From positions 1-64,000 of IMG/VR virus record IMGVR_UViG_3300007735_000794: a DNA stretch of 64,000 nt; one strand, 5' to 3'. Position 1 is the stretch's first letter. Each line of letters starts with the position of its first letter. This stretch comes from a virus. Below, in pieces: positions 5,791 to 50,061 of this stretch. A program made the translations under genes and the position numbers. The notes below the pieces were generated by a model. The model had not been told where the DNA came from. It ran no database searches and saw nothing but the letters and a program-made list of their open reading frames with translations.

Positions 5791-5794
5791 TCAA

Positions 5795-9813: not shown

Positions 9814-9823
9814 GGAACAATAC

Positions 9824-10236: not shown

Positions 10237-10667
10237 ACGAAGGATGTCTTGTCAAGGTAATAGACAATGCAGCTTGCCGCGGTTTTGCATTGATCGTAGG
10301 TCGAACATATACAAAGAATCGAAGAACAGTCTTCCAAGATGGTAAAAGTTATACAATACATCTTTCGCTATTTACAGAGCGTTTGATGGCTAAATCATTC
10401 TTTAATAAGCTCAAACAGCGAAAAGGCGACGTTATTTGCATTACAAACAAAATATGGTGGTTTGGCGGTGGCGGGTATGACAATGAAATGTCTCGTTTTG
10501 CGCTTTTGATTGATGTTGTAGAATACGATAAGTATGAAAATGCATCACTTGCCTCAGAAGCTGAAACATGGTCAACAGGATATGAAAGTAATGTCATCGC
10601 ATATTTGCTTATTAACAACAAATTAAAACACGTCAGAATCACACAAGCAGATGTTGTATTTATATGA
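10233..10667 (+). CDS. hypothetical protein (two KOW-like segments)
   Basis: MNEGCLVKV and RKGDVICI. Confidence 0.6.
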   Translation: MNEGCLVKVIDNAACRGFALIVGRTYTKNRRTVFQDGKSYTIHLSLFTERLMAKSFFNKLKQRKGDVICITNKIWWFGGGGYDNEMSRFALLIDVVEYDKYENASLASEAETWSTGYESNVIAYLLINNKLKHVRITQADVVFI

Positions 10668-10933
10668 AAATTGGAACGCTTGTTAGAGTACTGAGCACGG
10701 CGAAATGGGTGCCGCACAATGTTTTTGCAGGTGATTATGCGATTCTTGTAAGCATTGACTGGGATAAAACAACACATCCTTACGGAATAAAAGATCGCGA
10801 CGGAAATGTAATGACTGGCCGCGGGAGATTTTTATTCTTGAATAAGTTTGAAGCTGATGACTTTGTGCATCAAAAAGCAAACATAAAGATGATGTTATAT
10901 GAATCGTTTGATGTGATTAGTGAAGCTCGGTGA
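10664..10933 (+). CDS. small KOW/SH3-like protein
   Basis: MKIGTLVRV. Confidence 0.65.
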   Translation: MKIGTLVRVLSTAKWVPHNVFAGDYAILVSIDWDKTTHPYGIKDRDGNVMTGRGRFLFLNKFEADDFVHQKANIKMMLYESFDVISEAR

Positions 10934-11156
10934 TCTCATTCGAAAGAAACATAGTCACGCTTTCGTTGATGGAAAGTGGTGCGATGTAATTGCATTTTAT
11001 TGCGGTACTATTCCGAAAGGAACAAAGCATGATGATCACGGCTTTGTATACACGACATATTTAATTGATATCTACGTCGTCTATTTAGGCAAGAAAGATA
11101 CGAGTAGATATTTCGCAATATCAGATGAATGGGAAGTTTATCAGGAGTCTAATTAA
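10920..11156 (+). CDS. small KOW/SH3-like protein
   Basis: MKLGDLIRK. Confidence 0.65.
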   Translation: MKLGDLIRKKHSHAFVDGKWCDVIAFYCGTIPKGTKHDDHGFVYTTYLIDIYVVYLGKKDTSRYFAISDEWEVYQESN

Positions 11157-11378
11157 ATGCGAGATGATCGAGACATATGTGTGGGCGATCTTTGCAGATT
11201 TAGACAAACTGGCAATATTGTACTCATTATCAATGAGTTTAAAGCTGAAAATCCTCGATGTGATGAAATAATTGATTATTTTGACATCTATTACACAGCA
11301 CAGTGCATGTTTTCTTCTTATTGGGAAAAAGAACACATTTCGCGTGCGCTCGACATCATAGTATCAGCACGTGTGTGA
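11157..11378 (+). CDS. small KOW/SH3-like protein
   Basis: AGGAG SD; ICVGDLCRF. Confidence 0.65.
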   Translation: MRDDRDICVGDLCRFRQTGNIVLIINEFKAENPRCDEIIDYFDIYYTAQCMFSSYWEKEHISRALDIIVSARV

Positions 11379-11398
11379 TTGCATGCATATATTATAAT
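11369..11398 (+). promoter_or_regulatory. early-type promoter (GTGTGT-N16-TATAAT)
   Basis: acGTGTGT 11371-11376, TATAAT 11393-11398. Confidence 0.7.
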
Positions 11399-11424
11399 GT
11401 TTTTGTCTTAAAGGAATTCGAAAA

Positions 11425-11793
11425 ATGGGTGCGAATCTTCCGAAGATCCTCCGCGTTTCTCGCAAAGGACTCATGTCCGGTGCGAAGATGATCGTTCGTG
11501 GTCTCCAGAATACTGCGTCTCGTCGCTATGACGAAGCTGTAATCGATGAGCAGGTCGTCGACATGGAAATCGAAGAAATTGAGCAGATTGTCGAGACTCG
11601 CCGCCTCGATGAGATGTACTGCGAGCGGTCGTGGCGCCGCAAGCACAAAGACAATTCGCTGGGCGAGTTTTACGAAGACGATGATTATGATGACTTCGTA
11701 GCACAGCGTGAGTGGTGTGATGAATTCGAAGAGACGATCGATTATAAGCGCGCCGACGAAGCTGAAAATGAAACGTGGATCAATTGGGTGTAG
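11425..11793 (+). CDS. hypothetical protein, basic N-terminus and very acidic C-terminus
   Basis: AAGGA SD after promoter. Confidence 0.8.
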   Translation: MGANLPKILRVSRKGLMSGAKMIVRGLQNTASRRYDEAVIDEQVVDMEIEEIEQIVETRRLDEMYCERSWRRKHKDNSLGEFYEDDDYDDFVAQREWCDEFEETIDYKRADEAENETWINWV

Positions 11794-11827
11794 AACAAAC
11801 ATCTCATCAAGTGTAGGAAATCACACA

Positions 11828-12202
11828 ATGATTACTGCAATCTGTTTCTTCATCGCATTTCTCGTTGGTGTTATTACGTGGTCTGCTTGGGAAGAGCTTA
11901 GCACCACGACGTTGCCTATCCTTGCAGCGCTGTTTTTCTTGTCTTACGTCGTCAATCTTTTGCTGTGCGGAATGACAATCGAAAATTCTGAACTGCTGAG
12001 TCGTGTGTATCTTGGCGGATGTAGTTGCGTGTTGTCAATCATTGCAATCTTTCTTGCAATCAGTGACATCATCGAAATCTTCAAGCGGCTGCTTTCAAAG
12101 CAATTCAGCTTCTCTGGAAACAGGGAAAAGCTGCTAATCTCGTCGTTCACTGTTTCAGTAACATTCGCAATCATTACTGCGTCAATCGCAATGTGGGTGT
12201 GA
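11828..12202 (+). CDS. multi-pass membrane protein
   Basis: AGGA SD; about 4 hydrophobic helices. Confidence 0.75.
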   Translation: MITAICFFIAFLVGVITWSAWEELSTTTLPILAALFFLSYVVNLLLCGMTIENSELLSRVYLGGCSCVLSIIAIFLAISDIIEIFKRLLSKQFSFSGNREKLLISSFTVSVTFAIITASIAMWV

Positions 12203-12203
12203 C

Positions 12204-12437
12204 ATGAATGTCTGGGTGCTGTGTGAATGTCGTAAATGCTACATCGACTTCAAGGTGGAAATTCCGCCTGATGTCGAAAATTCTCTTGTCGGTGAACAAA
12301 TTAATCTCCACAGCGGATTTTCTGAATCGTATGGGATGACGACGTGTCCGAATGGTCATGCATCGCCCGCAGAATACTCGATTCATAGCGGGGGAACTGA
12401 GGACGATGTTTTTCCCGCGGGTCAGTGGAAAGCATAA
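12204..12437 (+). CDS. small Cys/His (zinc-ribbon-like) protein
   Basis: CRKC...CPNGH. Confidence 0.65.
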   Translation: MNVWVLCECRKCYIDFKVEIPPDVENSLVGEQINLHSGFSESYGMTTCPNGHASPAEYSIHSGGTEDDVFPAGQWKA

Positions 12438-12934
12438 CTTCACAAATGATCAAGAATAATACTAATCCCACGCTTAGCATGCTGATTCAAGAACATGCAG
12501 GCGTAGACGATTTCATGGCACATCTCGTCATTCAGGTGTGCTTGTCTTTTGCAACAGTGCTTATTTATGCTTCAACGCGCCGTCTTCCTGACGATATCGG
12601 GTTGATTATTACTGCAGCTTTTCATGTGATTATTACGCTATTTTTTGTTTTTGTCTTTGTCCACCATCTCATCGTGAAATGTAATGACACACGAATGAAG
12701 CTTGCAAGAATAGGTGCACTGAAAATTCAGCCGAATTCTGACTTGCTAATCTCAGTCGATAATTTTGTTTATACAGCAAGAGTTGAAGATGTGATGTATC
12801 TAAATGGATCGATTTATATTCACGTATCAAACATGATGCATGACTTTCTCCCGACTTCTTGGAGAAACGGTTTTTTGCGTTATGATGATGTCGATAATAT
12901 TGTGCAGGTTGTAAATGATTTTCAAACAAAGTGA
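12425..12934 (+). CDS. membrane protein
   Basis: Two TM helices; start uncertain. Confidence 0.65.
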   Translation: MESITSQMIKNNTNPTLSMLIQEHAGVDDFMAHLVIQVCLSFATVLIYASTRRLPDDIGLIITAAFHVIITLFFVFVFVHHLIVKCNDTRMKLARIGALKIQPNSDLLISVDNFVYTARVEDVMYLNGSIYIHVSNMMHDFLPTSWRNGFLRYDDVDNIVQVVNDFQTK

Positions 12935-13124
12935 TTTGATTCTTCGTAGAATCGATTTGAAATCACAAAATGTATACATTGACATCGTGTTAAGCGTGCG
13001 GAATGAATATGAATTGCTGGAAGTTGCTTATATAAAAAATGATAATTGGATTGTCGATATGCATGATGTCGACTACATTACTGCGCGCGTTGTTGAAATT
13101 GTTCACCCAGATGAGGATGACTAA
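12915..13124 (+). CDS. small protein, paralog of 15266 and 15472
   Basis: DLILRR..DIV..Y....VVEIVH pattern. Confidence 0.7.
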   Translation: MIFKQSDLILRRIDLKSQNVYIDIVLSVRNEYELLEVAYIKNDNWIVDMHDVDYITARVVEIVHPDEDD

Positions 13125-13296
13125 CGTGGAAGTGGGGGAGCTATATGAGCTTGGTCTCGGTGGAATTTACTATTTGATTATCGCAATGAACGAAGAAACT
13201 GCGGAGGCGATGAGGTATGACACACAAGGACACGTTGATCATGTCATCGATCGTAATGCTATATTTACAATACTTTGTAAAATACACGTCAAATAA
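13117..13296 (+). CDS. small KOW/SH3-like protein
   Basis: VEVGELYEL. Confidence 0.55.
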   Translation: MTNVEVGELYELGLGGIYYLIIAMNEETAEAMRYDTQGHVDHVIDRNAIFTILCKIHVK

Positions 13297-13305
13297 GATG
13301 CCGCA

Positions 13306-13572
13306 ATGAAGAAAGATCAAATCGTTCAAGTAGCACAGATTTCATACGGCGGCGCTGAAATGTTTAAACCGGGCACATTGCTCCATCTACGATGGGTATC
13401 TGGTAATGGGAGTAGATTTGCAATTTACATTGAACATGTGCTACTCGATGGTTTCACGTATGTAAAGATGTATGAATGTGAAAACAGACATAACAAAATT
13501 AACTTCATCATTTCCACATATTCAGAATCATATGTGATCAGACAAACCATTGAATATTTTGAAGCGACATGA
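13306..13572 (+). CDS. small KOW/SH3-like protein
   Basis: FKPGTLLHL. Confidence 0.55.
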   Translation: MKKDQIVQVAQISYGGAEMFKPGTLLHLRWVSGNGSRFAIYIEHVLLDGFTYVKMYECENRHNKINFIISTYSESYVIRQTIEYFEAT

Positions 13573-13763
13573 ATTCAGCATATGAACCCGCGGTTGATGA
13601 TGTGATTCTCTTGCGATACTCATCGGGTATTGTTCGCATTGCGAAAATTATTCGCATAGAATCAAGAGTCAATACACTCGAATATAACAAAGCATTAGAA
13701 CAATGGTGTCAGTGTGTGTGGAGTCATAACTACATCAAAAATGGCTTTGTTGAAAAGCTTTGA
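13569..13763 (+). CDS. small KOW/SH3-like protein
   Basis: PAVDDVILL..IAKIIRI. Confidence 0.55.
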   Translation: MNSAYEPAVDDVILLRYSSGIVRIAKIIRIESRVNTLEYNKALEQWCQCVWSHNYIKNGFVEKL

Positions 13764-13790
13764 ACAAACGTAGATTGCTTATCATTTACT

Positions 13791-13820
13791 GCGTGCGCAA
13801 ATTAATTCGCGTTGTATAAT
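13791..13820 (+). promoter_or_regulatory. early-type promoter (GTGCGC-N16-TATAAT)
   Basis: gcGTGCGC 13793-13798, TATAAT 13815-13820. Confidence 0.75.
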
Positions 13821-13847
13821 CGTATTACAGAAAAGGTATTTCGAACA

Positions 13848-14054
13848 ATGACTGTCAAAGACCTCATCGAAAAGCTGAAGACGTTTCCGCCCGACTATGA
13901 AGTCATCACGCTTGATGCTGATGGGCGTGAAGAGTCGGGTGTTGTGAATGCAGTCTTAGGCAAGATTCTTGAAATCGAAGTGGGTGAAGACTCCTTCGTT
14001 CAGGATGAGCCGAGTGATGAAGAAATGGGCTGCGTCGCAATCTACACTTTCTAG
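13848..14054 (+). CDS. small phage protein (MTVKDLIEKL..PPDYEV)
   Basis: AAGG SD; paralogous pattern with 1816. Confidence 0.75.
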   Translation: MTVKDLIEKLKTFPPDYEVITLDADGREESGVVNAVLGKILEIEVGEDSFVQDEPSDEEMGCVAIYTF

Positions 14055-14070
14055 TCGCAGAGAGATCGCA

Positions 14071-14301
14071 ATGAAACAGCTCATCAATCAAATCGCAGCA
14101 CAGATTGTCAAGTGGGCAGTCATGCGCATCAGCAATCATCCGAGGCAGCATGTCTTGCGTATCTGTAAAGATCATCACTTTGCATTGATTCGCGGTGAAA
14201 CTGTATATGTTGTCGGGAAAACAGACGACAGTCTTCTTGTCAGGTGCTGGTTTCCCAAGCTTCAAGTAGAAATCAATCTCAATCCCGCAAGCTTTGAGTG
14301 A
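14071..14301 (+). CDS. hypothetical protein
   Basis: ATG 14071 in 13969..14301 frame. Confidence 0.6.
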   Translation: MKQLINQIAAQIVKWAVMRISNHPRQHVLRICKDHHFALIRGETVYVVGKTDDSLLVRCWFPKLQVEINLNPASFE

Positions 14302-14310
14302 GGCATCAAT

Positions 14311-14583
14311 ATGAAGTTCAATGCATTCGCAATCTTCTCGCAAAGCAAAGGCTTCTATCACGCTGGGTCAATGTCAGACTACGACGGCGACTATCGAGTC
14401 CACGAATGGTCTGTCAAAGATGATGTTGACGGCATCATCGACTATTACGCCACGTCTGACGCAGCAAATGATGCGCTGAATGTGATGAAGCAAGAATACA
14501 AAAACACCTGCACATCTTGTCCTGAAGACGCATGTGTCGTCGCAATCGAAATCATGATTAAGCGCACAACTGCGGGGATGTAG
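14311..14583 (+). CDS. hypothetical protein
   Basis: GAGG SD. Confidence 0.7.
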   Translation: MKFNAFAIFSQSKGFYHAGSMSDYDGDYRVHEWSVKDDVDGIIDYYATSDAANDALNVMKQEYKNTCTSCPEDACVVAIEIMIKRTTAGM

Positions 14584-14589
14584 ACAAAA

Positions 14590-14775
14590 ATGAACAACAA
14601 CGACATGTACAGCTTCTACTTCCAAGACACGTTCGTGCGCGTCGAATGGTGGGATCATCCTGAAAATCATGCAGGCCCGTGGCGGTCTGCATATGATGCG
14701 TTGAATGCATTCTACAGAACTGGTATGGGGTCAGAACCCGCAGATGCATGCTACGTTCTGTTGACTGAATCGTAA
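14590..14775 (+). CDS. hypothetical protein
   Basis: Tiling. Confidence 0.6.
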   Translation: MNNNDMYSFYFQDTFVRVEWWDHPENHAGPWRSAYDALNAFYRTGMGSEPADACYVLLTES

Positions 14776-14804
14776 GCTGTTGCAATTCGTGCAAGATTGA
14801 TTGT

Positions 14805-15059
14805 ATGAAACAAGCGCTGAACAAACACAACGTCAGCGTTGGTGAGCTTGTTTGTTTGTGTGAAATGCATGGCAAAGAAAAATTTCGCTATTTTATTTTG
14901 ATTTTGGCAACGACAAATGATTCTGTTGAAGCTTTTGACTTTGAACTACAAGCGCCATGCTGGCTCTATTACGAAACAATCAACGAGTTCTTTGACTACA
15001 AGATAAGCAAATGTCGACAAAGGCAAACGGAGAAAACAAAAAATGAACACAAAATTTGA
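14805..15059 (+). CDS. small KOW/SH3-like protein
   Basis: VSVGELVCL..YFILIL. Confidence 0.6.
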   Translation: MKQALNKHNVSVGELVCLCEMHGKEKFRYFILILATTNDSVEAFDFELQAPCWLYYETINEFFDYKISKCRQRQTEKTKNEHKI

Positions 15060-15264
15060 CAATGTAAAGATCGACCAACTCACGGAAAGTGAGCGAATTG
15101 AGCTTTTGTGCAAGATCGAAGAACTTGTTGCTGATATGCCTTCGCTTACAGTTGACGCGCCCGGGCATATATTCGACGAGTATGCATGCTGTGGGGGTGC
15201 TACGAATCACGGACATGACAAAAATTGTTCTATCGGTCAATTGCGAAAGATCTTTGGCTACTAA
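15043..15264 (+). CDS. small Cys/His protein
   Basis: GGAG SD; CCG...GHDKNC. Confidence 0.65.
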   Translation: MNTKFDNVKIDQLTESERIELLCKIEELVADMPSLTVDAPGHIFDEYACCGGATNHGHDKNCSIGQLRKIFGY

Positions 15265-15265
15265 A

Positions 15266-15475
15266 GTGAAGTTCCAAATCGGCGACCTCCTGATACGAAG
15301 GCAACGCCCGGACGGTCCATTAATGAAAGATATTGTCGTAGAAATCGACAATGTTTATCGTGATGTTCGATTGTTGCATAACCGTCACAGCTACACTTGC
15401 GTTGAAGATTATAGTCACGAGTACCTTGTAGAAACTGTCATTGAAATCATTCACATAGACGAGTTTCATAAATGA
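15266..15475 (+). CDS. small KOW-like protein, paralog of 12915/15472
   Basis: FQIGDLLIRR..DIV..EYLVETVIEIIH. Confidence 0.7.
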   Translation: MKFQIGDLLIRRQRPDGPLMKDIVVEIDNVYRDVRLLHNRHSYTCVEDYSHEYLVETVIEIIHIDEFHK

Positions 15476-15711
15476 AATTGAAATCAGTATCTATCAACAG
15501 ATATGACTTGCTGATTCGACGCCCTTCATATTCAAAGAACACGCTCTTTGACGTCGTCATGACAATTCACGAACATGACATTATAACTGTAATGTCCATG
15601 CAGAACGGCAGTTCGTGGTACAATTCGTATACAGTGGAATATATTGTTTCGACAATTGTTGAAATCGTTCACGCAGATTCTTCAATGTGTAAAGCGCAAA
15701 GGGAGGAATGA
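15472..15711 (+). CDS. small KOW-like protein, paralog of 12915/15266
   Basis: YDLLIRR..DVV..EYIVSTIVEIVH. Confidence 0.7.
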   Translation: MKLKSVSINRYDLLIRRPSYSKNTLFDVVMTIHEHDIITVMSMQNGSSWYNSYTVEYIVSTIVEIVHADSSMCKAQREE

Positions 15712-15947
15712 TGTCGCAGTTCAATAACATCGAGCATGTCAATGCACTTCGTGAAAGTGCGAGAAGTGCTGCTGAAGCTCGGAAAGCAGCATGGTCGCAG
15801 ATGGAATCAACTCATGGCGATGACAATGTCGCTTTTGCCGTAGCATACAAGAAGTATTGTGAAGCACGAGAAAAGTGTGAGCAAATCGCTGAGAAATGGC
15901 ACAATGCAATGATTGAGCACAGCGAATCGCGTCTTCGCAATATCTGA
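15708..15947 (+). CDS. small helical protein
   Basis: GGAGG SD. Confidence 0.7.
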   Translation: MMSQFNNIEHVNALRESARSAAEARKAAWSQMESTHGDDNVAFAVAYKKYCEAREKCEQIAEKWHNAMIEHSESRLRNI

Positions 15948-15994
15948 GCAGAACAATCGAATGATCACAATTCACAGTGCTGAATGACAGCGTA

Positions 15995-16023
15995 ACGTGC
16001 GCGAACTTCGCGCTGTGTATAAT
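15995..16023 (+). promoter_or_regulatory. early-type promoter (GTGCGC-N15-TATAAT)
   Basis: acGTGCGC 15997-16002, TATAAT 16018-16023. Confidence 0.65.
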
Positions 16024-16079
16024 AAAGATGCGTGGAAAATCACGCAACACCAAAGCCTCAACGTGGCGGACAAGTCTCA

Positions 16080-16256
16080 ATGATCGTCGTCACTTACCGA
16101 AATCGGAAAGAACGTGTAAAGACGATTCGTCGTTGCGACAACATGTCTTCACAAACATGGCTTTGGTGTCATCTCGAACTCGAGAGTGGTGAAGAAGTCG
16201 TGGGCTTTTTCAACGTTGATGAAATCGTGCAGCACAACAATGAAATCAATCGCTGA
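16080..16256 (+). CDS. hypothetical protein
   Basis: After promoter; start uncertain. Confidence 0.55.
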   Translation: MIVVTYRNRKERVKTIRRCDNMSSQTWLWCHLELESGEEVVGFFNVDEIVQHNNEINR

Positions 16257-16263
16257 GGTTCAT

Positions 16264-16884
16264 ATGTCCACGATCTCCGGAACGACTCATGACATCATCT
16301 ACACCTGCTACTCACAGGATGAAGTGGTGATTCGTCAGCAGCTGAAGCATCTGCTGGTCATTCGAGCAGCGAAGCATCATCACTTGCAGCTCTTCAAACT
16401 CCCAGGGACCAAAGAAGAAATCACCGCCCTGGGATTCAGCAGTTACAATCAACCCGATACCTGGGTCATGGTGGCCGACAAGGGTCTACGCAGCTACACG
16501 ACCTCCGTCGATCACATCTGCCACGCAGCCGCTGACTGGATGGCAGGTTGGCTCTTCTGCGAGTCGATGCACATCACGCAGGCAAAGGAACTTCGGCAGA
16601 AAGAAATGACTGCAAAACTTGCGGCAGCAACCGCAAAAGCATCGAAGATCGTTCGTGCAAAGTTGCTAGACAAGACACCCTACATGCTGATTCAGCGTGT
16701 TCATCAAACGAGCCCAACCACCACCCACGTCTCCACCTTCGTCACCAACGACACATATTACATCGAAGAACACGCAGTGAAGACGTACGGCTACAAGCTT
16801 CTAGCTTGCGCGAAGACCGAAGAGCAGCTCAACGAGCTTCTCGAATTCACTCGTGAGCCACAACAAATCATCGCTGTCACCTAG
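16264..16884 (+). CDS. hypothetical protein (C-ending codon bias)
   Basis: GAGG SD; about 206 aa. Confidence 0.8.
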   Translation: MSTISGTTHDIIYTCYSQDEVVIRQQLKHLLVIRAAKHHHLQLFKLPGTKEEITALGFSSYNQPDTWVMVADKGLRSYTTSVDHICHAAADWMAGWLFCESMHITQAKELRQKEMTAKLAAATAKASKIVRAKLLDKTPYMLIQRVHQTSPTTTHVSTFVTNDTYYIEEHAVKTYGYKLLACAKTEEQLNELLEFTREPQQIIAVT

Positions 16885-17171
16885 GGAATATTACGCTAAT
16901 GAATGGTCTGAGCATTCTCTTCTAATGAATCTTGTCGAAATTGTCAAACTCAATGCATGAAACGTTCAATGTGATGCTCAATGTGATGTATGACTCGCAG
17001 CTTGTGGAAGACTTTACAAACGAAATGACAATGAAATGTCAAAAGTGTTCATATGATGACATGTGACAGACTGTTTCTGCGGCTCATGCAGAGGACGCAG
17101 GTAAAATCTGGTGGGGCGGGGGACCCCGAAGTCGTCCGACGCGTCAACTTTCAACTGCCTCGACTTGTCAA

Positions 17172-17414
17172 ATGACCAATTCCGAATTACACAATGTCAA
17201 AGCGACAGACGTCATTGTTCTTACGGGTTCACATGCACGCAGATATTTCTATCTTGTATTAAATGTAACTTCAGATAACAAAACTATCACTGTCATGTCG
17301 TCAGTCAATGAGTATGCAGAACAGCAAGTCGGCCCGATCGACGCATTTCTTTCCACAACGTGTCACATAGAAATCCTTCAGACACATGACGAGTCACATC
17401 ACAATGACGAATGA
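17172..17414 (+). CDS. small KOW/SH3-like protein
   Basis: VKATDVIVL..YLVLNV. Confidence 0.55.
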   Translation: MTNSELHNVKATDVIVLTGSHARRYFYLVLNVTSDNKTITVMSSVNEYAEQQVGPIDAFLSTTCHIEILQTHDESHHNDE

Positions 17415-17655
17415 TACATCATTGAATAATTTGAATATACACAATATTCAACAAGGCGATCTTATTCAGATCGACGCTGCATTCGATTTCAGGCCCATTA
17501 TGCTCGTCACAGGAATCTGCACTGTGGCAATCAGACGCGTCGATCACATTGCAGTCGATTTTCAATTCGTATGGGACGGTGTGCAGCATGAAGACACATG
17601 GCAAATGAAGACAATCAATGAACGATGGGACGGATTCGTGTCAAGGCCACAATGA
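17386..17655 (+). CDS. small KOW/SH3-like protein
   Basis: IQQGDLIQI; start uncertain. Confidence 0.6.
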   Translation: MTSHITMTNDTSLNNLNIHNIQQGDLIQIDAAFDFRPIMLVTGICTVAIRRVDHIAVDFQFVWDGVQHEDTWQMKTINERWDGFVSRPQ

Positions 17656-17740
17656 CGTCTGCGCAACCGACAATCGATACAAACGTCTGAGCTCTGCGAG
17701 CGCAATCGCATTCACATGTTACCATTCAAATGGGCGAATA

Positions 17741-18001
17741 ATGAACGATCAATTTGAGCCGGGCGACTTGTTGATTATGCGTTATGATGATACACCCACG
17801 AGCAGCATACAGTATCCCGGTGTGATCTTGAGTACAGGCGAGCAGTGTGGTCTCCGTAGCTCTAGATGGGTAACTTTTTTCTATCATCTGCCCGACGGAG
17901 TCGTGAGTGCGTGTGACAGCAAAAAAATTGTCACACATACCCAGACTTGGGTCTACGAGTACATGATTTCGCATCATAAAGCAGCATTTGACTCGCAGTA
18001 G
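17741..18001 (+). CDS. small KOW/SH3-like protein
   Basis: FEPGDLLIM..GVIL. Confidence 0.6.
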   Translation: MNDQFEPGDLLIMRYDDTPTSSIQYPGVILSTGEQCGLRSSRWVTFFYHLPDGVVSACDSKKIVTHTQTWVYEYMISHHKAAFDSQ

Positions 18002-18241
18002 CGCAAAAAGTATATGATCTCAGCTCAAAGCTCACTTTCATCACATTTTTGAACATTTTTTAAACAGAAGTGAGCTTTGTGGGCAGAAGATAAAAAATAT
18101 TTGACTCCCAGCAGCGCGCAGAGTTAATCATTTTTGATGAAGTTAACTTTCGTCACACTTTTTGAACTTTTTGAAACGGTTTTGAGGTTTGATGTGAAAG
18201 CGTTAAAAATGATTGACTCAGAGCAGCGCGCAAAGTATATA
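17986..18241 (+). repeat. degenerate ~113-bp tandem repeat, each unit with TTGACT-N17-TATAT-like promoter
   Basis: TTGACTC..AG.AGCGC..A.AG at 17988, 18101, 18213; ACTTTC.TCACA.TTTTTGAAC repeated. Confidence 0.75.
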
Positions 18242-18433
18242 AGTCCTCACACAATTGAACCTGGGCAGCTGTGGAAGATGATATATGATGTAGAGATTTA
18301 CTATCACATTCTCACAGTTGACGAACGAATTGTTACAATTGTCAGATGGTGCTCGCAGAGAATGACTGTCGAGTGGCGCTATCGTTATGACGTTGATCAA
18401 ATGCGCGGGACGCTCATTTCAGGGAACACATAA
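18209..18433 (+). CDS. small 'GQLW' KOW-like protein
   Basis: IEPGQLWK..YYHILTV; start uncertain. Confidence 0.55.
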   Translation: MIDSEQRAKYISPHTIEPGQLWKMIYDVEIYYHILTVDERIVTIVRWCSQRMTVEWRYRYDVDQMRGTLISGNT

Positions 18434-18651
18434 TGACAAGCACAAAGATGAAAATTGAGAAGGGTCAACTGTGGCGCATCAACGCACAAACAAAAAGCGG
18501 GACAATTCTCTATCTGATTTTAGACATCGTTAACAGTAATACAGTCACAATTGCGCGATACGGATCGTATTCAATGGGACCGGGCGCATTTTGTATTGTG
18601 ACACGAAGTGTTTATGAAATTCGTGATCTTGCGACAGAGATAATCGTATGA
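18433..18651 (+). CDS. small 'GQLW' KOW-like protein
   Basis: IEKGQLWRI..LYLILDI. Confidence 0.65.
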   Translation: MTSTKMKIEKGQLWRINAQTKSGTILYLILDIVNSNTVTIARYGSYSMGPGAFCIVTRSVYEIRDLATEIIV

Positions 18652-18860
18652 ATTCGCAACGACGCTATCAGCAGAATCAGATGTGGCGCATTCGGTCACC
18701 GCACATCTATTACGTCATTGCACAAATCAAACACGACAGCGCAGTCATTCTACGTTTTGATTGTCAACCGTATCGCAGTAGGAAGGGTGACGGTGCTGCA
18801 GTCACGCAACACGAGCAGTTCTACAGCGTTCTTGATTCTATTTGCACAGAAGAACTATGA
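18648..18860 (+). CDS. small 'GQLW'-type protein
   Basis: QQNQMWRI..YYVIAQI. Confidence 0.6.
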   Translation: MNSQRRYQQNQMWRIRSPHIYYVIAQIKHDSAVILRFDCQPYRSRKGDGAAVTQHEQFYSVLDSICTEEL

Positions 18861-19051
18861 AACCGCTCAAACCCATCGTAGCGGGTCAGTTGTTAATCAA
18901 TTCGACAGAGCACAGAATCAAATACATTGTCATCGTTGTGTGGCAACATTCAGCATGTGTCATGCGATATGATTGGCGAGGCTTTACGATTGAACACTAC
19001 AGCTTAGATTTGCTCTCGTCAATCGCATTCAATATCGAAGAAGACACATGA
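18857..19051 (+). CDS. small 'GQL'-type protein
   Basis: IVAGQLLI; ATGA overlap. Confidence 0.6.
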   Translation: MKPLKPIVAGQLLINSTEHRIKYIVIVVWQHSACVMRYDWRGFTIEHYSLDLLSSIAFNIEEDT

Positions 19052-19266
19052 AAATGGCTGTCGCATGCGGACAAATTTGGAGATTGAAAGTAGAATTTAG
19101 AATTTTCTACGACGCCGCGCGACTATTTCATGTTTTGTCATTGAATGACGCCTTCGCCCAGGGCAATTTTATCGCTGATGTTGGGTCTGCGCCAATGCGT
19201 TGTAATTTGCCTTGCGATCGTATTCTTGAAATATACGACCTCATTTCAGACGCTGTCAGAGAATGA
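19048..19266 (+). CDS. small 'GQIW'-type protein
   Basis: VACGQIWRL. Confidence 0.6.
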   Translation: MKMAVACGQIWRLKVEFRIFYDAARLFHVLSLNDAFAQGNFIADVGSAPMRCNLPCDRILEIYDLISDAVRE

Positions 19267-19267
19267 C

Positions 19268-19561
19268 ATGTCAAATCTAGCAGAAGCACAGCAAACTGAA
19301 TTCTCGGCGGGTGATCTCTATCTGATTAAATTTTGGCCTGGGGGCGCGACATGGACAGGATTCGTGCTGACGAATGAATACGTTGATCCAACGCTCAGCG
19401 CCGGCGGCAAGCTTGTCATGTTGAACTTGTATGCCGCAGACAAAATACCGTATAATGGCTACAAAATCTATGCGAATGAATTACGCCGTTGCGAATCGAT
19501 CAAAAAATTGTGTAGCATTGATGATGATGAACATGAATATACACAGAATGAATCTGCATAA
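19268..19561 (+). CDS. small KOW/SH3-like protein
   Basis: FSAGDLYLI. Confidence 0.6.
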   Translation: MSNLAEAQQTEFSAGDLYLIKFWPGGATWTGFVLTNEYVDPTLSAGGKLVMLNLYAADKIPYNGYKIYANELRRCESIKKLCSIDDDEHEYTQNESA

Positions 19562-19598
19562 CTTATGTGAAACTTTGACAACAAATCCACAGTAACAT

Positions 19599-19871
19599 AT
19601 GGCAATCATGCACGATTCAACAGAACTTCAACAGATAAAATCTGCTGACATACAATGCGGGATGATGTTGCAAATTCGTTTTGGACCGGGACCCAACAAC
19701 GGATTCAACACAATTGCATATGTCAATGCTATCAACACGAAAATGTGTGTGTTTGTATTCACATTATGGTTTACTGACAACAGCGACATCAGCATTTGGC
19801 CCAATTACACAATTCCAATCAGCTCGACTGGGAACATGCAATTCAGATACATTTGCAGCGACCCTGCGTGA
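19599..19871 (+). CDS. small KOW/SH3-like protein
   Basis: IQCGMMLQI. Confidence 0.6.
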   Translation: MAIMHDSTELQQIKSADIQCGMMLQIRFGPGPNNGFNTIAYVNAINTKMCVFVFTLWFTDNSDISIWPNYTIPISSTGNMQFRYICSDPA

Positions 19872-19920
19872 GAAGCGCTTGAAGCCCACTTGACGCCCGA
19901 ACTTCACACCCAACAACATC

Positions 19921-19950
19921 ACGTGCGTGAAATGCGCGGGATCATATAAT
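19921..19950 (+). promoter_or_regulatory. early-type promoter (GTGCGT-N16-TATAAT)
   Basis: acGTGCGT 19923-19928, TATAAT 19945-19950. Confidence 0.75.
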
Positions 19951-19986
19951 GTCGCCACAGCAGCACAATTCGTGTTGCGCAAGAGG

Positions 19987-20232
19987 ATGACTTCGATGAA
20001 GTGCACGAAGTGCCACGTTGAGATGCAGTTGGGTCTCGCAATGATGCCCGTCTTGGGCAATTCGAATGCAAAGCCGCAGCTTGGGCAATGCATGTGGCCC
20101 GTTGGTGCAGCACTGTCGAACAACTGCCTCAAGTGCCCGCAGTGTGGTCACACTGTCGCATGGGCAGGGGAAGCGCAAGTGATGGTGGGCGATCCTCACT
20201 TGACGGTCAACGTGGGCGTTGCACAGAACTGA
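19987..20232 (+). CDS. zinc-ribbon protein
   Basis: MKCTKCHVEM...KCPQCGH; GAGG SD. Confidence 0.7.
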   Translation: MTSMKCTKCHVEMQLGLAMMPVLGNSNAKPQLGQCMWPVGAALSNNCLKCPQCGHTVAWAGEAQVMVGDPHLTVNVGVAQN

Positions 20233-20685
20233 AGATCTGCACGACAGCAAAGGGCGTGGGAGCTTAGAGATAAGTTGCCGCGCTTTTTGTTCACTTGAGC
20301 CTCGGGCTTCTCACACAGCACTGCACACTCTGCTCGTTGCAGAAAAATGCGACTTCCTAACAACTTCTACATCAGACGCTCGCGTGTCGCAGTGAAGACT
20401 GATGTCTCAACGTTTCAAGACACGCGGACGGGAAGCTCACGCGCAATTGAACATCGCGTCGCGCACGCGACAGACTCGACTTCACAGCTCTGCGTTGCCC
20501 TGCCCACACGTCAGTTCGACGACGTCAGAGCGCTGACGCAGCAGCACGCACGTCAGAGCGCGCAGATGTTCAAATCCGTTCTGCTGTGCGCAAGCTGCTG
20601 AAGGGTCACTTGAGACCCAACACTCACCTTGCGCACAGCAGAACGGGGGAGGCTTTCGCCTCCCCCGCCCATTCACCCGCCGTCC

Positions 20686-21249
20686 CTAGCTACGGCGACC
20701 CTTCTTCTTCTCGACCTGCACGGGTTCCTCGGCCACGGGCGCCTCGGGCTCTTCCACCACCGTCTCGGCGTGCACCTCGACGGGTTCCTCCACGGTCTCC
20801 GCGGGCACGTCTTCCCCGGTGGCGGGCTGCACCTCGGCGACCTCGCCCGTGGCCTCCTCGGCGGTGTTGGTCACCTCCTCGGTGGCACCCTCGGGCGGCG
20901 CCGCCGCCTCCACCACCGGCTCCTCCACCTGCACGACGGGGGCGATCGGCTGACCGTTGACGAGGATGACCGGCTTGTCCGTGTTGGTGGACCCACCGTG
21001 GCTCTTCGTCTCGGGGCACGGGTAGCCGGCCTCGCGGAGCGCCTTCTTGCACGCCCCACCGATCGCCACCTTTTCCCCCTGGCCGAACTGGGCACGCGTG
21101 TCATCGTGGACCTTGAGCAGCCAACGCCCGCCCCAGTTGAAGGGGGAAGCCGTGAAGGGCTTGCCGTCGCACGTCCCGGAGGCGGACTGCTTGTTGTTCT
21201 TGGCGTCGGTCACGTCGAGGGCGGTGATCTTGATATCGAATCGGGACAT
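20686..21249 (-). CDS. hypothetical protein with long Glu/Val/Pro-rich acidic tail; very high GC3
   Basis: GGAGAG SD before ATG 21249; codons nearly all G/C-ending; own promoter. Confidence 0.85.
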   Translation of the reverse strand: MSRFDIKITALDVTDAKNNKQSASGTCDGKPFTASPFNWGGRWLLKVHDDTRAQFGQGEKVAIGGACKKALREAGYPCPETKSHGGSTNTDKPVILVNGQPIAPVVQVEEPVVEAAAPPEGATEEVTNTAEEATGEVAEVQPATGEDVPAETVEEPVEVHAETVVEEPEAPVAEEPVQVEKKKGRRS

Positions 21250-21385
21250 GATCTCTCCCACTTGTTCGGCACTTGTTGCCGATTGTTGCTAGACACCCGG
21301 GAGGGTGGGAATAAGGGTGGCGGGGATTTGACCCGCCCGGGGAGGATTCCCCTCTTAATCCATTATTCCTCTGGATTATACCCAG

Positions 21386-21415
21386 ATTATATCTTTGAGT
21401 TTTTGGTTCACACGT
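21386..21415 (-). promoter_or_regulatory. early-type promoter (GTGTGA-N16-TATAAT) for the 21249 gene
   Basis: + strand ATTATA 21386-21391, TCACAC 21408-21413. Confidence 0.7.
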
Positions 21416-21481
21416 CGATGGAGATGGGAAGTTTTGTGCTGCGAAAATGCGCTGACGCTCGCCGCGCTTGAAGCTCACATG

Positions 21482-21544
21482 AAGCACTTGACACCCACTT
21501 CACGCTGACGCTGAGGAGAAAGCACTTGACAGACACTTCACGCT
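21482..21544 (+). repeat. 25-bp imperfect direct repeat containing TTGACA
   Basis: AAGCACTTGACAcccACTTCACGCT / AAGCACTTGACAgacACTTCACGCT, 38-bp period. Confidence 0.75.
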
Positions 21545-21923
21545 CCTCATGAACTTGACGTTCCACAAATGTCCGCGGCAGACACACGTCGCCTCGCTCA
21601 TTGTCGGGCTGAAGTGTGAAGTGCTGCACACGCTGCGCGTTGCGACTCCGAGCGCGGCGAGGTGCGGGCTGATGCAGCTTGACATGAAGCGCACGCTTGA
21701 GACGCTGTCGTTTGACTGTGAAGCAGTGTAGGGGCACGTTGCGCTGCTCAGCGTCTGAGATGCAGTGCTGCTCGATAGACACGTCAGACCTCCCATTGCG
21801 CAGCTGTGCTGCGTCTATGCTGCTACGCACGCTGATGTCGCAGTCGTGCGTCAAACAGCGCACAGGGCACACGAACTGAATCGTGAACCCGTGCACAGTG
21901 ACAGCTCCGCTGCTGCCAAATAG

Positions 21924-21953
21924 ATTATAACATGCAGTTTCTGTTGCGCACGC
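21924..21953 (-). promoter_or_regulatory. early-type promoter (GTGCGC-N16-TATAAT), leftward
   Basis: + strand ATTATA 21924-21929, GCGCAC 21946-21951. Confidence 0.7.
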
Positions 21954-22047
21954 TGCCACAACCGGTGCGCAGCGCAGAGAACAATCGAAGCGTCACGCAG
22001 ATGATGCGTGTCTGCTGCTGCAGCTGACGTAGCCGCCGCCCTGTCCC

Positions 22048-22076
22048 ATTATAACAACGCTGCACACTTCACACGC
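22048..22076 (-). promoter_or_regulatory. early-type promoter (GTGTGA-N15-TATAAT), leftward
   Basis: + strand ATTATA 22048-22053, TCACAC 22069-22074. Confidence 0.55.
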
Positions 22077-45975: not shown

Positions 45976-47283
45976 ATGAACTCAGCTACCATAAACGAAC
46001 TAGAATTCAGATCTCAATTGAATTCTAGACTACTAAATATTAAGCAATTATCAAACTCTGGCGCTTTAATCTTACATAAACATTTAGTAAATGACTCATT
46101 ACAGAAAGTTCTTATATCATCAAAAAGAAAATCATGGTTCGACAATACTATTCTTCCAATGATTGAATCTGCATCAATCGACGCAGAAAAATCTGCACCT
46201 GGCGCGGGATTAATTGTATTGAAGTTAATTACAAGTCAATTAACAGAAGATCTAAAAGAAATTAGCAATTCGAATCTTGAAATAGAACTTCTAAAAGAAC
46301 ATACATCCTCAGCACAAAAAATATGCACGAAAGAAGAATTTGAAGAATTTAGAAAAAAGACACTTTCAAAACATGCTTATGCTTTGATGACAGAAATATT
46401 AGAAAAATACAATCTTGGTGACGATCTAGAAACAAAAAAATCTTATTTGAGAGACACAACAATTGAAAAAATTGAAGGATACACACTTGACAATATTATT
46501 TTTAATCAGCTCTTCCTCAAAAGTGGAACGTGGACAAGGTCAGATGTAAATGTGTTAATAATTGATGGTCTAATAGAATCAGTCGGAGAAATTTATCATC
46601 TTCTAGAAAAAGCAAATAAGACAAGCGAATCGTATCTTGTAATTTGTGCTGGTATTTTACAAGAACCATTGAATGTTATCTTACAAAATTTTGCAAGAGA
46701 AACAATAGATGTAGTTGTTGGAACTATTAAATCAAGTGATCAAAGCATCAATACAATAGCAGATCTTGGCACAATTTGTATGACGTCACCCATCTCAGCA
46801 ATGAAGGGAGAGACAATATCACAAGCAACGTTACATGACTTTCAAAAACTCGATAAAGTCAGTATTACACAAAATCGTATACAAATAAAAAATAGCAAAG
46901 CAAAAATTGCAACTACAAATTTACTTCGTGAACTTATAAAAAAGTCACAGCAAGATATTGACGTTGATTATCTTTTGCAAAAAAGAATAAAATGTCTATC
47001 TTCGTCTAGACTTTCAATATCAATTGGGCGAGACGATGTAGATAAACAAAAAAATATCATTGAAGAAATTGATACATTCTTACGAAGTTGCCCAATGATT
47101 TTATCAAATGGATTTTTACATAAAAATGAATTAAAGAATTTTTCTGATAACATAATCGAATTATTATTTGGTGAAACAGATGCACAACCCGTTGTCAGAA
47201 TTGAAAAAGCTATTTCAATATATAAATCATTCTTTAATCAAATCAAGCAAACCGGCACAATTATCACAGAAGACAGGAGTTAA
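45976..47283 (+). CDS. divergent GroEL/Cpn60-like chaperonin
   Basis: IEGYTLD; LIIDGLIESVGEIYHLLE..YLVICAG (apical domain); LQKRIKCLS..ISIG; lacks GDGTTT. Confidence 0.7.
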   Translation: MNSATINELEFRSQLNSRLLNIKQLSNSGALILHKHLVNDSLQKVLISSKRKSWFDNTILPMIESASIDAEKSAPGAGLIVLKLITSQLTEDLKEISNSNLEIELLKEHTSSAQKICTKEEFEEFRKKTLSKHAYALMTEILEKYNLGDDLETKKSYLRDTTIEKIEGYTLDNIIFNQLFLKSGTWTRSDVNVLIIDGLIESVGEIYHLLEKANKTSESYLVICAGILQEPLNVILQNFARETIDVVVGTIKSSDQSINTIADLGTICMTSPISAMKGETISQATLHDFQKLDKVSITQNRIQIKNSKAKIATTNLLRELIKKSQQDIDVDYLLQKRIKCLSSSRLSISIGRDDVDKQKNIIEEIDTFLRSCPMILSNGFLHKNELKNFSDNIIELLFGETDAQPVVRIEKAISIYKSFFNQIKQTGTIITEDRS

Positions 47284-47287
47284 AAAG

Positions 47288-47521
47288 ATGTCACTAGAGT
47301 TAAAAGTAAGCACTACATTCAAGAATTCAATCGACGTTGTTAAAGATAAAGTCATATCAAATCTCATTGAAGCAAGAGGTCAAGGAAAAATCAAGATAGA
47401 GAAAAAAGAATTCGATGCAATATGCAACATGATAATAATGTCATTTGATCAAGGCTCACTTAACTCGTTCTCTCAAATCGACACACTTGTAAAGGAAATA
47501 AGAAAAGAATATGGCAATTGA
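47288..47521 (+). CDS. hypothetical protein
   Basis: AGGAG SD. Confidence 0.75.
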   Translation: MSLELKVSTTFKNSIDVVKDKVISNLIEARGQGKIKIEKKEFDAICNMIIMSFDQGSLNSFSQIDTLVKEIRKEYGN

Positions 47522-47981
47522 TGGTCTAAGACATTTAATCGAATGTCATTGCATATTACCACAATTTAGAAACAGGAAAGAACCTGTTTATCATAAATTC
47601 GTAGTATTTTCAATTACAAACGATGATGTATTTCAGCAGAAGCTAGTTCAATGCAATAATTGCGGAATCGTTCACAAAGTCATTGATTTTTGTAAATCTG
47701 AGATTGTTCATGGAATTGAAGAAAACAAATCATTGAGAACAATTGAAGATATCAAGCTGGGAATTCCAAAAACAATTTGTGAGTTTCTAACACAACAAAA
47801 TGCAGATTTATCTATCTGGGAATTCGTTGAGTTTGTTCTTGAAAACAATCTTGAAAAAGATGTCGTAATAAAGAAAGATGACTCTGGCGGAATAACACAA
47901 GTAAAAATCTTGCAAATTAAACAAGATGGTACTTTTAAAGTAAGAAATCATACAAGACAAGACATCGTGGAAATACAATGA
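47511..47981 (+). CDS. putative zinc-binding protein
   Basis: ECHC..CNNCG..H..FCK. Confidence 0.75.
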   Translation: MAIDGLRHLIECHCILPQFRNRKEPVYHKFVVFSITNDDVFQQKLVQCNNCGIVHKVIDFCKSEIVHGIEENKSLRTIEDIKLGIPKTICEFLTQQNADLSIWEFVEFVLENNLEKDVVIKKDDSGGITQVKILQIKQDGTFKVRNHTRQDIVEIQ

Positions 47982-48220
47982 AAGTAGGAAAATCTGAAAC
48001 AGAAAAGAAAGCAGAAGAATTGCTTAAATGCAGACAAATCGTAACTGAGGTTCTTAGATTTGGTGTTTCGCAAGATCAAATTATGCAAATCATAAATCTG
48101 CTAGCATTAGAACTTGAAAATAACGCAGCTATGATTGATATAGTCGCAGCAGTAAAAGCACACAAAGTGTCAATCATTGATGAAAATACAACAGCAATTA
48201 AAACAAAACTTTTGGATTAG
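47978..48220 (+). CDS. hypothetical protein
   Basis: ATGA overlap. Confidence 0.75.
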   Translation: MKVGKSETEKKAEELLKCRQIVTEVLRFGVSQDQIMQIINLLALELENNAAMIDIVAAVKAHKVSIIDENTTAIKTKLLD

Positions 48221-48222
48221 CA

Positions 48223-48489
48223 ATGGCAAAAAATGAAATGCAGCAACTTTGGGAAGAGATTAACTTAATTGTTGCAAGTATGGAAAAAGATGCAATTAAA
48301 ACAGATGGAGGAAATATTCGTTCTGGCGTTGTTTTACGCAAAGGATTGCGTCTCTTAAAAGAAAGAGCTGCTAATATGCTTCGAGAATCAATAGAACGAA
48401 AAGAGCAGTTTGCAGAAAACAAACGTGTTCGTCTTAAAGCACGTCGCGATAGAGATGCTGCTAGACAAACAAAAAAATCAATTAACTAG
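48223..48489 (+). CDS. histone H1-like Hc1-family nucleoid protein
   Basis: MEKDAIK..GN..SG..LRK..L.....R.ES pattern; basic tail. Confidence 0.7.
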   Translation: MAKNEMQQLWEEINLIVASMEKDAIKTDGGNIRSGVVLRKGLRLLKERAANMLRESIERKEQFAENKRVRLKARRDRDAARQTKKSIN

Positions 48490-48699
48490 TGAAGAAAGTT
48501 TTTCAATTATTCGTTTTTCAATTTGACAAACGCGCATGCGTGATATAGATAATATGTCACCTATTTCTTGCAGTAATAATGTGCCACGCTTAGCAGCAAC
48601 AATTGTGCAATTTTGATGCTGTTTGCAATTTATCCATTGTCTGCAAGCTTTATTATTGCATTGTACCTTGTGCTCATCGTGCAATTGATAACATTTCAT
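48478..48699 (-). CDS. stand-alone sigma-70 region 4 HTH protein with Cys-rich N-terminus
   Basis: LQEIGDILSISRMRVCQIEKRIIEKL; five N-terminal Cys; GAGG SD. Confidence 0.8.
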   Translation of the reverse strand: MKCYQLHDEHKVQCNNKACRQWINCKQHQNCTIVAAKRGTLLLQEIGDILSISRMRVCQIEKRIIEKLSSLVN

Positions 48700-48759
48700 T
48701 GTAATACCTCTAATTCAATAATAGAGTTGAATGTATGATTTTACCACACAGAGAGTTTA

Positions 48760-50061
48760 ATGTCCTCAAATAATGATAAAAGAAAAACGTTTGTAGTAGA
48801 TACTTCTGTTTTGCTATATGATAAATGTGCAATTCACTCATTTACTGGAAATGACGTTGTAATTCCATTGATCGTTTTAGATGAGCTTGATCGAAACAAA
48901 GACAAGCCCGGTCTTGTTGGTGAAAACGCAAGATACGTCAATCGTTTTCTAGACGATCTCAGAAAAGAGAATAAATTATTTGAAACTATCAATCTGAAAA
49001 ATGATCAAACTATTCGTGTAGAAATTGAATCACATCAAGTGCCACAAGGACTTGATCCAAGCTTTGGTGATAACAAGATCATTGCAACTGCGTATTATCT
49101 TACAAAATCAATGCTCAATACAAAAGTTGTTATGGTGACAAAAGATATCAACTTTAGAATTAAATGTGATGCATTAGGAATCGAAGCTGACGATTACTAC
49201 AAAGATAGAGTTATACAGAACAAAGACGCAATCTATTCGGGTATGCAAGAAATAGAAACTCAAGATGATTTCTTGATTGACAATTTTTATAAACAAGGAT
49301 TTGTTAGCACAAATCTAATTGAAAATGATTTCTATAAGAATCAATATATCTCGCTAAAGTCTGGAAGCAAATCATTGCTTGGCATAAACAATGACGGAAG
49401 AATCATCCCGCTTATCAATAAAATTGATTCTGCAGCAAAAATAAAAGCAAGAAATAAAGAACAGCTATTCGCAATAGACCTTCTTTCACGTGAAGAAATA
49501 AAACTCGTTTCAATGACAGGAATTGCAGGATCAGGAAAAACTTTCTTAACACTCCTCGCAGGGCTTGCAGGAATTCAAGACAAAAAATATGAAAGAATCA
49601 TTATCACAAGATCATTACAGACTGTCGGAAAAGATATTGGTTTTTTGCCAGGCGATATCAATGAAAAAATGTCGCCTTGGCTCTCACCAATTTTAGATAA
49701 CTTTAGACATGTATTCAAAGATCTTTCATATTTTGAAATAATGCGACAAAAAGGTCAAATTGAAATTACGCCGCTCGCATTTATTCGTGGTAGAACATTT
49801 AACAATACATTTTTGATCGTAGACGAAGCTCAAAATTCTACAATACACGAACTAAAGACTGTAATTACACGCGTCGGCGAAAATTCAAAAGTCGTATTGT
49901 TGGGCGATACAGACCAAATTGATACGCCATATCTCGATAGTCTATCAAATGGTTTGACAATCGTCGTAGAAAAATTTAAAAATCACGATATTACAGGACA
50001 TATCACATTAACTAAGGGCGAACGTTCACAGCTTGCAACTTTAGCATCTAAAATAATTTAG
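48760..50061 (+). CDS. phoH: PIN-PhoH family ATPase
   Basis: VVDTSVL / VLDELD PIN domain; GIAGSGKT, GFLPGD, RGRTF, VDEAQN, GDTDQID. Confidence 0.95.
   Translation: MSSNNDKRKTFVVDTSVLLYDKCAIHSFTGNDVVIPLIVLDELDRNKDKPGLVGENARYVNRFLDDLRKENKLFETINLKNDQTIRVEIESHQVPQGLDPSFGDNKIIATAYYLTKSMLNTKVVMVTKDINFRIKCDALGIEADDYYKDRVIQNKDAIYSGMQEIETQDDFLIDNFYKQGFVSTNLIENDFYKNQYISLKSGSKSLLGINNDGRIIPLINKIDSAAKIKARNKEQLFAIDLLSREEIKLVSMTGIAGSGKTFLTLLAGLAGIQDKKYERIIITRSLQTVGKDIGFLPGDINEKMSPWLSPILDNFRHVFKDLSYFEIMRQKGQIEITPLAFIRGRTFNNTFLIVDEAQNSTIHELKTVITRVGENSKVVLLGDTDQIDTPYLDSLSNGLTIVVEKFKNHDITGHITLTKGERSQLATLASKII

Follow-up and report, generated by a model that had tools for sequence, protein, structure and literature searches.

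A stand-alone, cysteine-capped sigma region 4.2 protein in uncultured jumbo phages and its possible pairing with a truncated RpoD-like sigma factor

The locus of the small gene

The window analysed here comprises 64,000 nucleotides, positions 1 to 64,000 of the viral record IMGVR_UViG_3300007735_000794. The source contig, a 98-kb IMG/VR viral contig rated 28% complete, encodes a baseplate wedge protein, an SbcC/gp46-like protein and a PIN-PhoH protein, all of them T4-like markers. The gene under study (the small gene) lies on the minus strand at 48478..48699. In the ORF listing it begins with ATG and encodes a 73-residue protein, in which a four-cysteine cap precedes a sigma-70 region 4.2 helix-turn-helix (HTH). 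A GAGG ribosome-binding site, read from the sequence, is located 8 nt upstream of the ATG (48707..48710, minus strand). Further upstream, a consensus scan placed a host-type promoter-like site at 48738..48766 on the minus strand, consisting of AGGACA, 17 nt and a TG-extended TAAAAT; this site is a consensus match only. TGnTAAAAT-like boxes occur at the equivalent place in relatives. An earlier sequence-only reading had assigned the gene the span 48478–48745. The ORF it identified is retained here, while its right-hand end, 46 nt beyond the start codon and inside the promoter, had to be given up.

The small gene is the sole opposite-strand gene of its neighbourhood. Transcribed divergently from it is the PIN-PhoH gene (48760..50061, plus strand; Pfam PIN_4 2.3e-29, PhoH 1.2e-53). 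Of 80 related loci, 79 show this same adjacent, divergent arrangement, as a rule with a gap of 55–80 bp. Convergent with the small gene is a block of four plus-strand ORFs (45976..48489), whose order is conserved in related loci and which encode proteins of 435, 156, 80 and 88 residues. Homologs of these were found in 50, 71, 60 and 54 of the 80 loci, respectively, and none of the four matched a Pfam or PHROG family. The 156-residue ORF (47511–47981) is rich in Cys (CxC ... CxxC), and its Atlas model is poor. The 88-residue ORF (48223–48489) is basic and overlaps the 3′ end of the small gene by 12 nt; its motif KG..R.G..LRK.L..LK presumably reflects a resemblance to histone H1-like nucleoid proteins such as Hc1.

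A sigma region 4.2 fold under a four-cysteine cap

The Pfam family Sigma70_r4 (PF04545) matched the 73-residue protein with E = 1.6e-8 and 34.4 bits, above the gathering cutoff of 24.1. The match covers residues 43–68, equivalent to model positions 23–48 of 50. Relatives of the small protein scored 37.7–39.5 bits, with matches that begin at model position 12, 16 or 19 and run to position 50. PF04545 was the only significant Pfam match, with none to LuxR/GerE or other regulator HTH families, and Pfam detected neither region 2 (PF04542) nor region 3 in the protein. A PHROG scan returned a single, weak match, to the sigma-factor family phrog_351. When a profile of 103 family members was compared with all PDB sequences, the only matches were to region 4.2 of primary sigma factors (RpoD/SigA), with a best E of 4e-8. 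The protein had been read from its sequence as a stand-alone region 4.2 HTH without region 2, and the PF04545 score, the PDB profile matches and the absence of region 2 confirm this.

The recognition helix reads S-R-M-R-V-C-Q where RpoD has T-R-E-R-I-R-Q. The sequence-only reading had pointed to this alteration (RMRVCQ for RERIRQ), and it proved to be a conserved property: R-M-R-[IV]-C-Q is kept in all close relatives, with substitutions at two base-contacting positions. In the numbering of E. coli sigma-70, we take the exchanged residues to be E585 (here M) and R588 (here C). The equivalents of R584, R586, Q589 and E591 are retained, and the DNA-contacting face as a whole (R54, R56, Q59, E61, K62) is strongly conserved. 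The helix cysteine, C58, is invariant in the core clade only, with K or R in its place in distant members. These distant members keep a near-canonical TRERVRQIEAKALRKLRHP, near-identical to RpoD region 4.2, which points to descent of the family from a primary sigma factor.

The cap, residues 1–31 (48607..48699, minus strand), consists of an N-terminal helix (residues 3–10) and a Cys-rich loop with the spacing C-x10-C-x4-C-x11-C, a putative metal site judged by conservation in the 103 sequences. The N-terminal half contains five Cys and several His. Near-invariant across the family are C3, C14, C19, C31, W22 and N30, whereas C25 and H7 are variable. The Cys/His zinc site proposed earlier is therefore retained as a four-Cys site (C3, C14, C19, C31), without the fifth cysteine, C25, and H7. 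The four Cys most likely bind a structural Zn, with an Fe–S cluster as the less likely alternative.

The AF2 model, computed from the 103-member alignment, has a mean pLDDT of 94.1 and a pTM of 0.70, with helices at residues 3–10, 32–38, 43–50 and 54–72. The sigma domain 4 core (residues 32–73; 48481..48606, minus strand), supported by this model, fold superposition and the profile matches, is made up of three helices: the end of a 4.1-like helix, the HTH helix and the recognition helix S-R-M-R-V-C-Q-I-E-K. It superposes on region 4 of SigA, SigW and sigma-28 with 0.5–1.7 Å over 30–38 residues. Being tiny, the domain gave weak fold-match statistics (Foldseek E > 0.8, Z at most 3.4). The fold searches gave no known fold match for the cap (residues 1–31), and LuxR-type response-regulator DNA-binding domains were among the neighbours of the small protein, few and weak. 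With a 4.1-like helix of its own and a confidently predicted fold as a monomer, the small protein is not a structural half that needs completion. The model is that of an autonomously folding sigma domain 4 HTH beneath a four-Cys cap.

Distribution of the family

In IMG/VR the family comprises 268 related loci on contigs of up to 293 kb. At E up to 1e-3 there were 196 cluster representatives, nearly all of 70–120 residues, and none of the best 150 matches was a fused sigma form. Among cultured phages (50,697 records), tblastn detected no homolog of the small protein, and tblastn and megablast gave no match for the small-gene locus or its 156-residue neighbour. A search of 185,579 prokaryote species returned five full-length matches, all in MAG contigs with mutually inconsistent taxonomy, and these contigs look like mis-binned phage; the remaining cellular matches are the 4.2 regions of host sigma factors. 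The ESM Atlas search gave unnamed viral clusters only. The family is thus phage-only, within a clade of uncultured aquatic T4-like jumbo phages. The Moraphage paper (PMC12619734) contains no clear description of this clade.

Some matches call for separate mention. NHDW01000006.1 (L178 / G038:C5; 305,838 bp), filed under a Methylococcaceae MAG, carries the small gene, a truncated sigma gene and a GroEL-like gene. In all likelihood this is the genome of a jumbo phage that was binned wrongly. Matches confined to the N-terminal domain or to repeats were rejected, P0038, P0047, P0141 and P0148 as frameshifted or chimeric gene calls and P0101 as an unrelated repeat protein. Relatives with a variant helix of the P0046 type lie on fragments that are 15–36% complete, with no sigma factor in the recovered part, and the variant-helix query P0135 gave non-specific matches.

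Promoter boxes in the window and in relatives

The sequence-only reading had proposed that the small protein reads altered −35 boxes, CGTGYG or KTGTAA. The first of these is enriched in the window, where CGTGYG-N15-19-TANNNT occurs 11 times compared to 4.05 expected, a number reached in 0 of 100 shuffles. Sites of the form CGTG[CT]G-N16/17-TATAAT, a phage-specific promoter class and candidate targets of the small protein, span 318..22075, at 318, 7477, 11370, 13792, 15996 and 19922 on the plus strand and at 21414, 21952 and 22075 on the minus strand. All CGTGYG sites of the window lie within its GC-richer first 22 kb, and between positions 1 and 24 kb the box stands 17 nt upstream of about half of the exact TATAAT sites. 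The canonical TTGACA-N17-TATAAT is absent from the window. The KTGTAA box fell short of significance in the source contig (11 vs 7.0), and TGTAA-type boxes are strong in relatives. The promoters of the complete relatives are remarkably alike within each genome. In G027, GTGTAA-N16-18-TATAAT gave 27 matches compared to 0.85 in shuffles, with 23 of them upstream of co-oriented genes. In G001, whose promoters are TG-extended, CTGTAAAAAA followed by TGGTATAAT gave 12 matches vs 0.4. The canonical TTGACA-N17-TATAAT was not enriched in either genome. Promoters of these phages combine a consensus TATAAT with a non-canonical box at the −35 position.

The boxes vary from phage to phage (CGTGYG, GTGTAA or, offset by 2 nt, CTGTAA), while all of these phages have an identical helix, R-M-R-[IV]-C-Q-I-E-K. 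Since the box differs and the helix does not, the suggestion that the altered helix residues determine the box, for which covariation had been proposed as the check, is not supported. Furthermore, the sigma gene of G027 itself lies behind a box promoter, so that reading of the boxes may not need sigma and small protein together. The boxes show a recognition other than that of canonical region 4.2, without pointing to the small protein as its reader.

Several further observations concern these regions. The sequence ATAAGG follows TATAAT by about 6–7 nt in many of the box promoters of G001 and G027 (L151–L177) and is absent from the promoters of the window. Window positions 1–23000, which hold all of the CGTGYG–TATAAT promoters, have small ORFs and a GC content of 41–50%, compared to about 33% elsewhere. 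Only 1 of the 50 ORFs in this segment has a homolog in two complete relatives, compared to 36 of 79 in the rest of the contig, and the promoter-rich first 50 kb of G001 shows the same pattern. The segment looks like a hypervariable early-type region, with an assembly chimera as the less likely alternative. At the GC-rich/AT-rich boundary (22185–22375) there are three tandem copies, spaced by 83 and 76 nt, of the 32-nt element GCTTCCCGGGAATTTTCAACGACTTCTGACAT. Positions 23047–31572 contain about twelve plus-strand ORFs of 200–240 residues each; some pairs are distant paralogs (25–35% identity), and none of the ORFs matched a Pfam family.

A truncated sigma factor in related phages

Four large relatives each have exactly one strong region 2 match (75–83 bits), and in each the sole region 4 match above cutoff is the small protein. 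The sigma ORFs of these four genomes are RpoD-like. They contain regions 1.2, 2 and 3 and a clear region 4.1 (...REEKVLRLRFGI...), and end 13–28 residues later. On PF04545 the phage sigmas cover model positions 1–18/19 only, which is the complement of the match of the small protein. The same truncation is seen in 44 of 45 related IMG/VR sigma loci, where the ORF ends 6–31 residues past RLRFG, without a recognition helix. The related truncated sigmas share a conserved tail, FP[IV]T..E...L, in which profile–profile comparison detected no remnant of region 4.2. The 120 nearest database relatives of the truncated sigma are all 249–271 residues long, with regions 1.2, 2 and 3. Full region 4 is present in the two cultured jumbo-phage sigmas examined, and a complete 427-kb relative (G029) has a full-length, 401-residue sigma with SRERIRQLE and no stand-alone small gene. 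In every relative inspected (L084–L087, L216) the truncated sigma gene is immediately downstream of a GroEL-like chaperonin gene.

Both genes were found in 12 genomes, and the sigma was truncated in all 12. The small gene was present in all 7 of the truncated-sigma genomes that are at least 78% complete, two of which have terminal repeats. The genes are 40–117 kb apart; none of the 80 small-gene loci and none of the 45 sigma loci had the partner nearby, with no case within 6 kb in these 125 loci. Because of this distance, fragments of 67–73% completeness that lack one partner are uninformative. The 98-kb source contig has no region 2 match (PF04542), and we attribute the absence of a sigma gene to its being a 28%-complete fragment; the pairing of its small gene with a sigma is therefore extrapolated from relatives. 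This pattern of co-occurrence is what a split sigma factor predicts, and shared ancestry alone could also give it.

A possible split sigma factor and its alternatives

Since the sigma of the related jumbo phages misses exactly region 4.2, the small protein and this sigma may well form a split sigma factor. We put the probability that the small protein supplies region 4.2 in trans to a phage sigma factor made of two pieces at roughly 0.45. Besides the complementarity and the co-occurrence, the near-canonical helix of distant family members, the TATAAT promoters with a non-TTGACA box and the precedent of established split sigma factors speak for this reading. Its partner would likely be the phage-encoded RpoD-like sigma without region 4.2, and not host sigma-70. 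In the sequence of events that we propose, the small gene would be expressed by host RNA polymerase from its extended −10 promoter. The truncated sigma would bind core polymerase and read the −10 element, and the small protein would join it at the beta-flap or at the region 4.1 helices, perhaps through contact between the Cys cap and the conserved FP[IV]T..E...L tail of the sigma. The small protein would then supply the upstream DNA contact, through the helix with two altered base-contacting residues. The domain content, the conservation and the co-occurrence are observed, and the mechanism beyond these is what we infer from them. Several considerations weigh against a split sigma. The two genes are unlinked, the small protein is predicted to fold alone, the boxes vary under an identical helix, and the sigma gene of G027 itself lies behind a box promoter. 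The co-occurrence may simply reflect two core genes of one clade, and a sigma without region 4.2 can act alone at extended −10 promoters, as is established for E. coli sigma-70; the promoters of G001 are TG-extended. A further, improbable extension is that promoter recognition is gated by metal or redox state. With a sigma split inside region 4 and a −35 module that is stabilised by a four-Cys Zn or Fe–S site and has an invariant Cys at a base-contacting position, a widespread clade of aquatic jumbo phages could make its choice of promoters depend on metal or redox conditions in the cell that is infected.

The same protein could function instead as an autonomous HTH regulator, either repressor or activator, acting as a free protein on a fixed operator at its own or the PIN-PhoH promoter. 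Its link to sigma region 4 would then be one of descent only, and the truncated sigma would work alone in a −35-independent manner. The divergent pairing with PIN-PhoH across a short gap is a typical layout for a local regulator, the small gene and the sigma gene are unlinked, and the confident monomer fold includes a complete three-helix DNA-binding core. The invariant recognition helix likewise points to a single conserved target, in contrast to the promoter boxes, which vary. However, inspection of the aligned upstream regions of 80 loci revealed no conserved operator-like sequence, and the Pfam matches include no LuxR/GerE or other regulator HTH. Such a regulator also leaves two facts unexplained, namely that precisely the 4.2 HTH is missing from the one sigma that these phages have, and that the relative with a full-length sigma has no small gene. 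We consider this explanation unlikely, though worth keeping in view. As a sigma region 4 decoy, the small protein would occupy the beta-flap or titrate host factors that bind sigma-70 region 4, shutting off host −35-dependent transcription, to which the 4.2-less phage sigma would be immune. Sigma binds the flap largely through region 4.1, most of which the small protein lacks, and its strongly conserved DNA-contacting face suggests that DNA binding matters. Both points make a decoy improbable, despite the close similarity to primary-sigma region 4.2, the predicted expression from a host-type promoter and a phage sigma without the mimicked part. T4 AsiA and gp33 exemplify phage proteins directed at sigma region 4 or the flap (PMC2988021, PMC7824862).

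The last alternative that we considered makes the small protein a functional counterpart of T4 gp33, a flap-bound co-activator serving not the RpoD-like sigma but a divergent, gp55-like late sigma at late promoters of the TATAAATA type. A 240-residue ORF of the source contig, outside the window at 67822–68544 (L082:3822-4544), has a weak match to the T4 gp55 late sigma. Against phrog_234 it scored E = 0.001 in the genome search and E = 0.03 against the whole library, and with the same-sized weak matches in G001 and G024, three genomes contain weakly gp55-like ORFs of 240–247 residues. These matches are below significance. The search for gp33 itself (phrog_254) found no match in five genomes, and the control of that search found nothing anywhere either. 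Moreover, gp33 is not known to bind DNA, whereas the small protein keeps a DNA-reading helix, and the exact complementarity is with the RpoD-like sigma. A gp33-like role thus appears very doubtful.

If the pairing of small protein and truncated sigma is real, it would represent a sigma-70-family factor interrupted in nature within region 4, at the junction of 4.1 and 4.2, with the DNA-reading half as a separate, metal-capped protein of 73 residues. The short list of known split sigma factors would gain a new architecture, and the redirection of host RNA polymerase by a large and abundant group of uncultured aquatic jumbo phages would be explained. A compact −35 module that can be swapped would also become available for the study or engineering of promoter recognition.

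Comparison with known systems

Iyer et al. (2021, PMC7824862) noted that T4-like (group 2) jumbo phages carry RpoD-like sigma factors as well as minimal ones with a single HTH; that survey does not mention truncation of the RpoD-like sigma, a Cys-capped 4.2 protein or a pairing of the two. In the literature full text, coverage of which is incomplete, we found no account of a phage sigma without 4.2 that is accompanied by a separate 4.2 protein.

The closest likeness of the small protein, in both sequence and fold, is to RpoD/SigA region 4.2, through the HTH and the preceding helix (0.5–1.7 Å rmsd). It differs in standing alone without regions 1–3 and in having a four-Cys cap in place of most of region 4.1. 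The WhiB-like Fe–S proteins that bind SigA region 4 likewise couple a four-Cys metal module to sigma region 4, the metal being putative in the small protein. In the latter, the Cys spacing (C-x10-C-x4-C-x11-C) is different and the Cys module is fused to the HTH, whereas WhiB docks on it. No WhiB family appears among the Pfam matches of the small protein at E up to 1, and WhiB–SigA complexes appear in the Foldseek list solely on account of the region 4 chains that they contain.

The established split sigma factors include T4 gp55/gp33, SPO1 gp33/gp34, SigO/RsoA and Tn916 Sig7/Sig8, and for Tn916 Sig7, a region 4 protein that stands alone, association with polymerase has been demonstrated (10.64898/2026.10.01.756105). 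With T4 gp55/gp33 the phage candidate pair shares the T4-like context, a sigma that lacks region 4 and a separate small protein, putatively flap-directed in the candidate pair, encoded far away. There is no sequence relation, the small protein matching phrog_351 only and not phrog_254, and gp33, which has no known DNA-reading HTH, needs the sliding clamp, while the small protein has an HTH. The candidate pair resembles B. subtilis SigO/RsoA and Tn916 Sig7/Sig8 in having region 4 on one small protein and region 2 on another. Those systems are ECF-like, minimal and encoded side by side, whereas the large partner of the phage pair is RpoD-like, extends from region 1.2 to 4.1 and is broken inside region 4. 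The putative phage pair also has a Cys-capped small part and genes 40–117 kb apart. Gene adjacency or co-transcription is a feature of SigO/RsoA and Sig7/Sig8, and is shared neither by gp55/gp33 nor by the phage pair.
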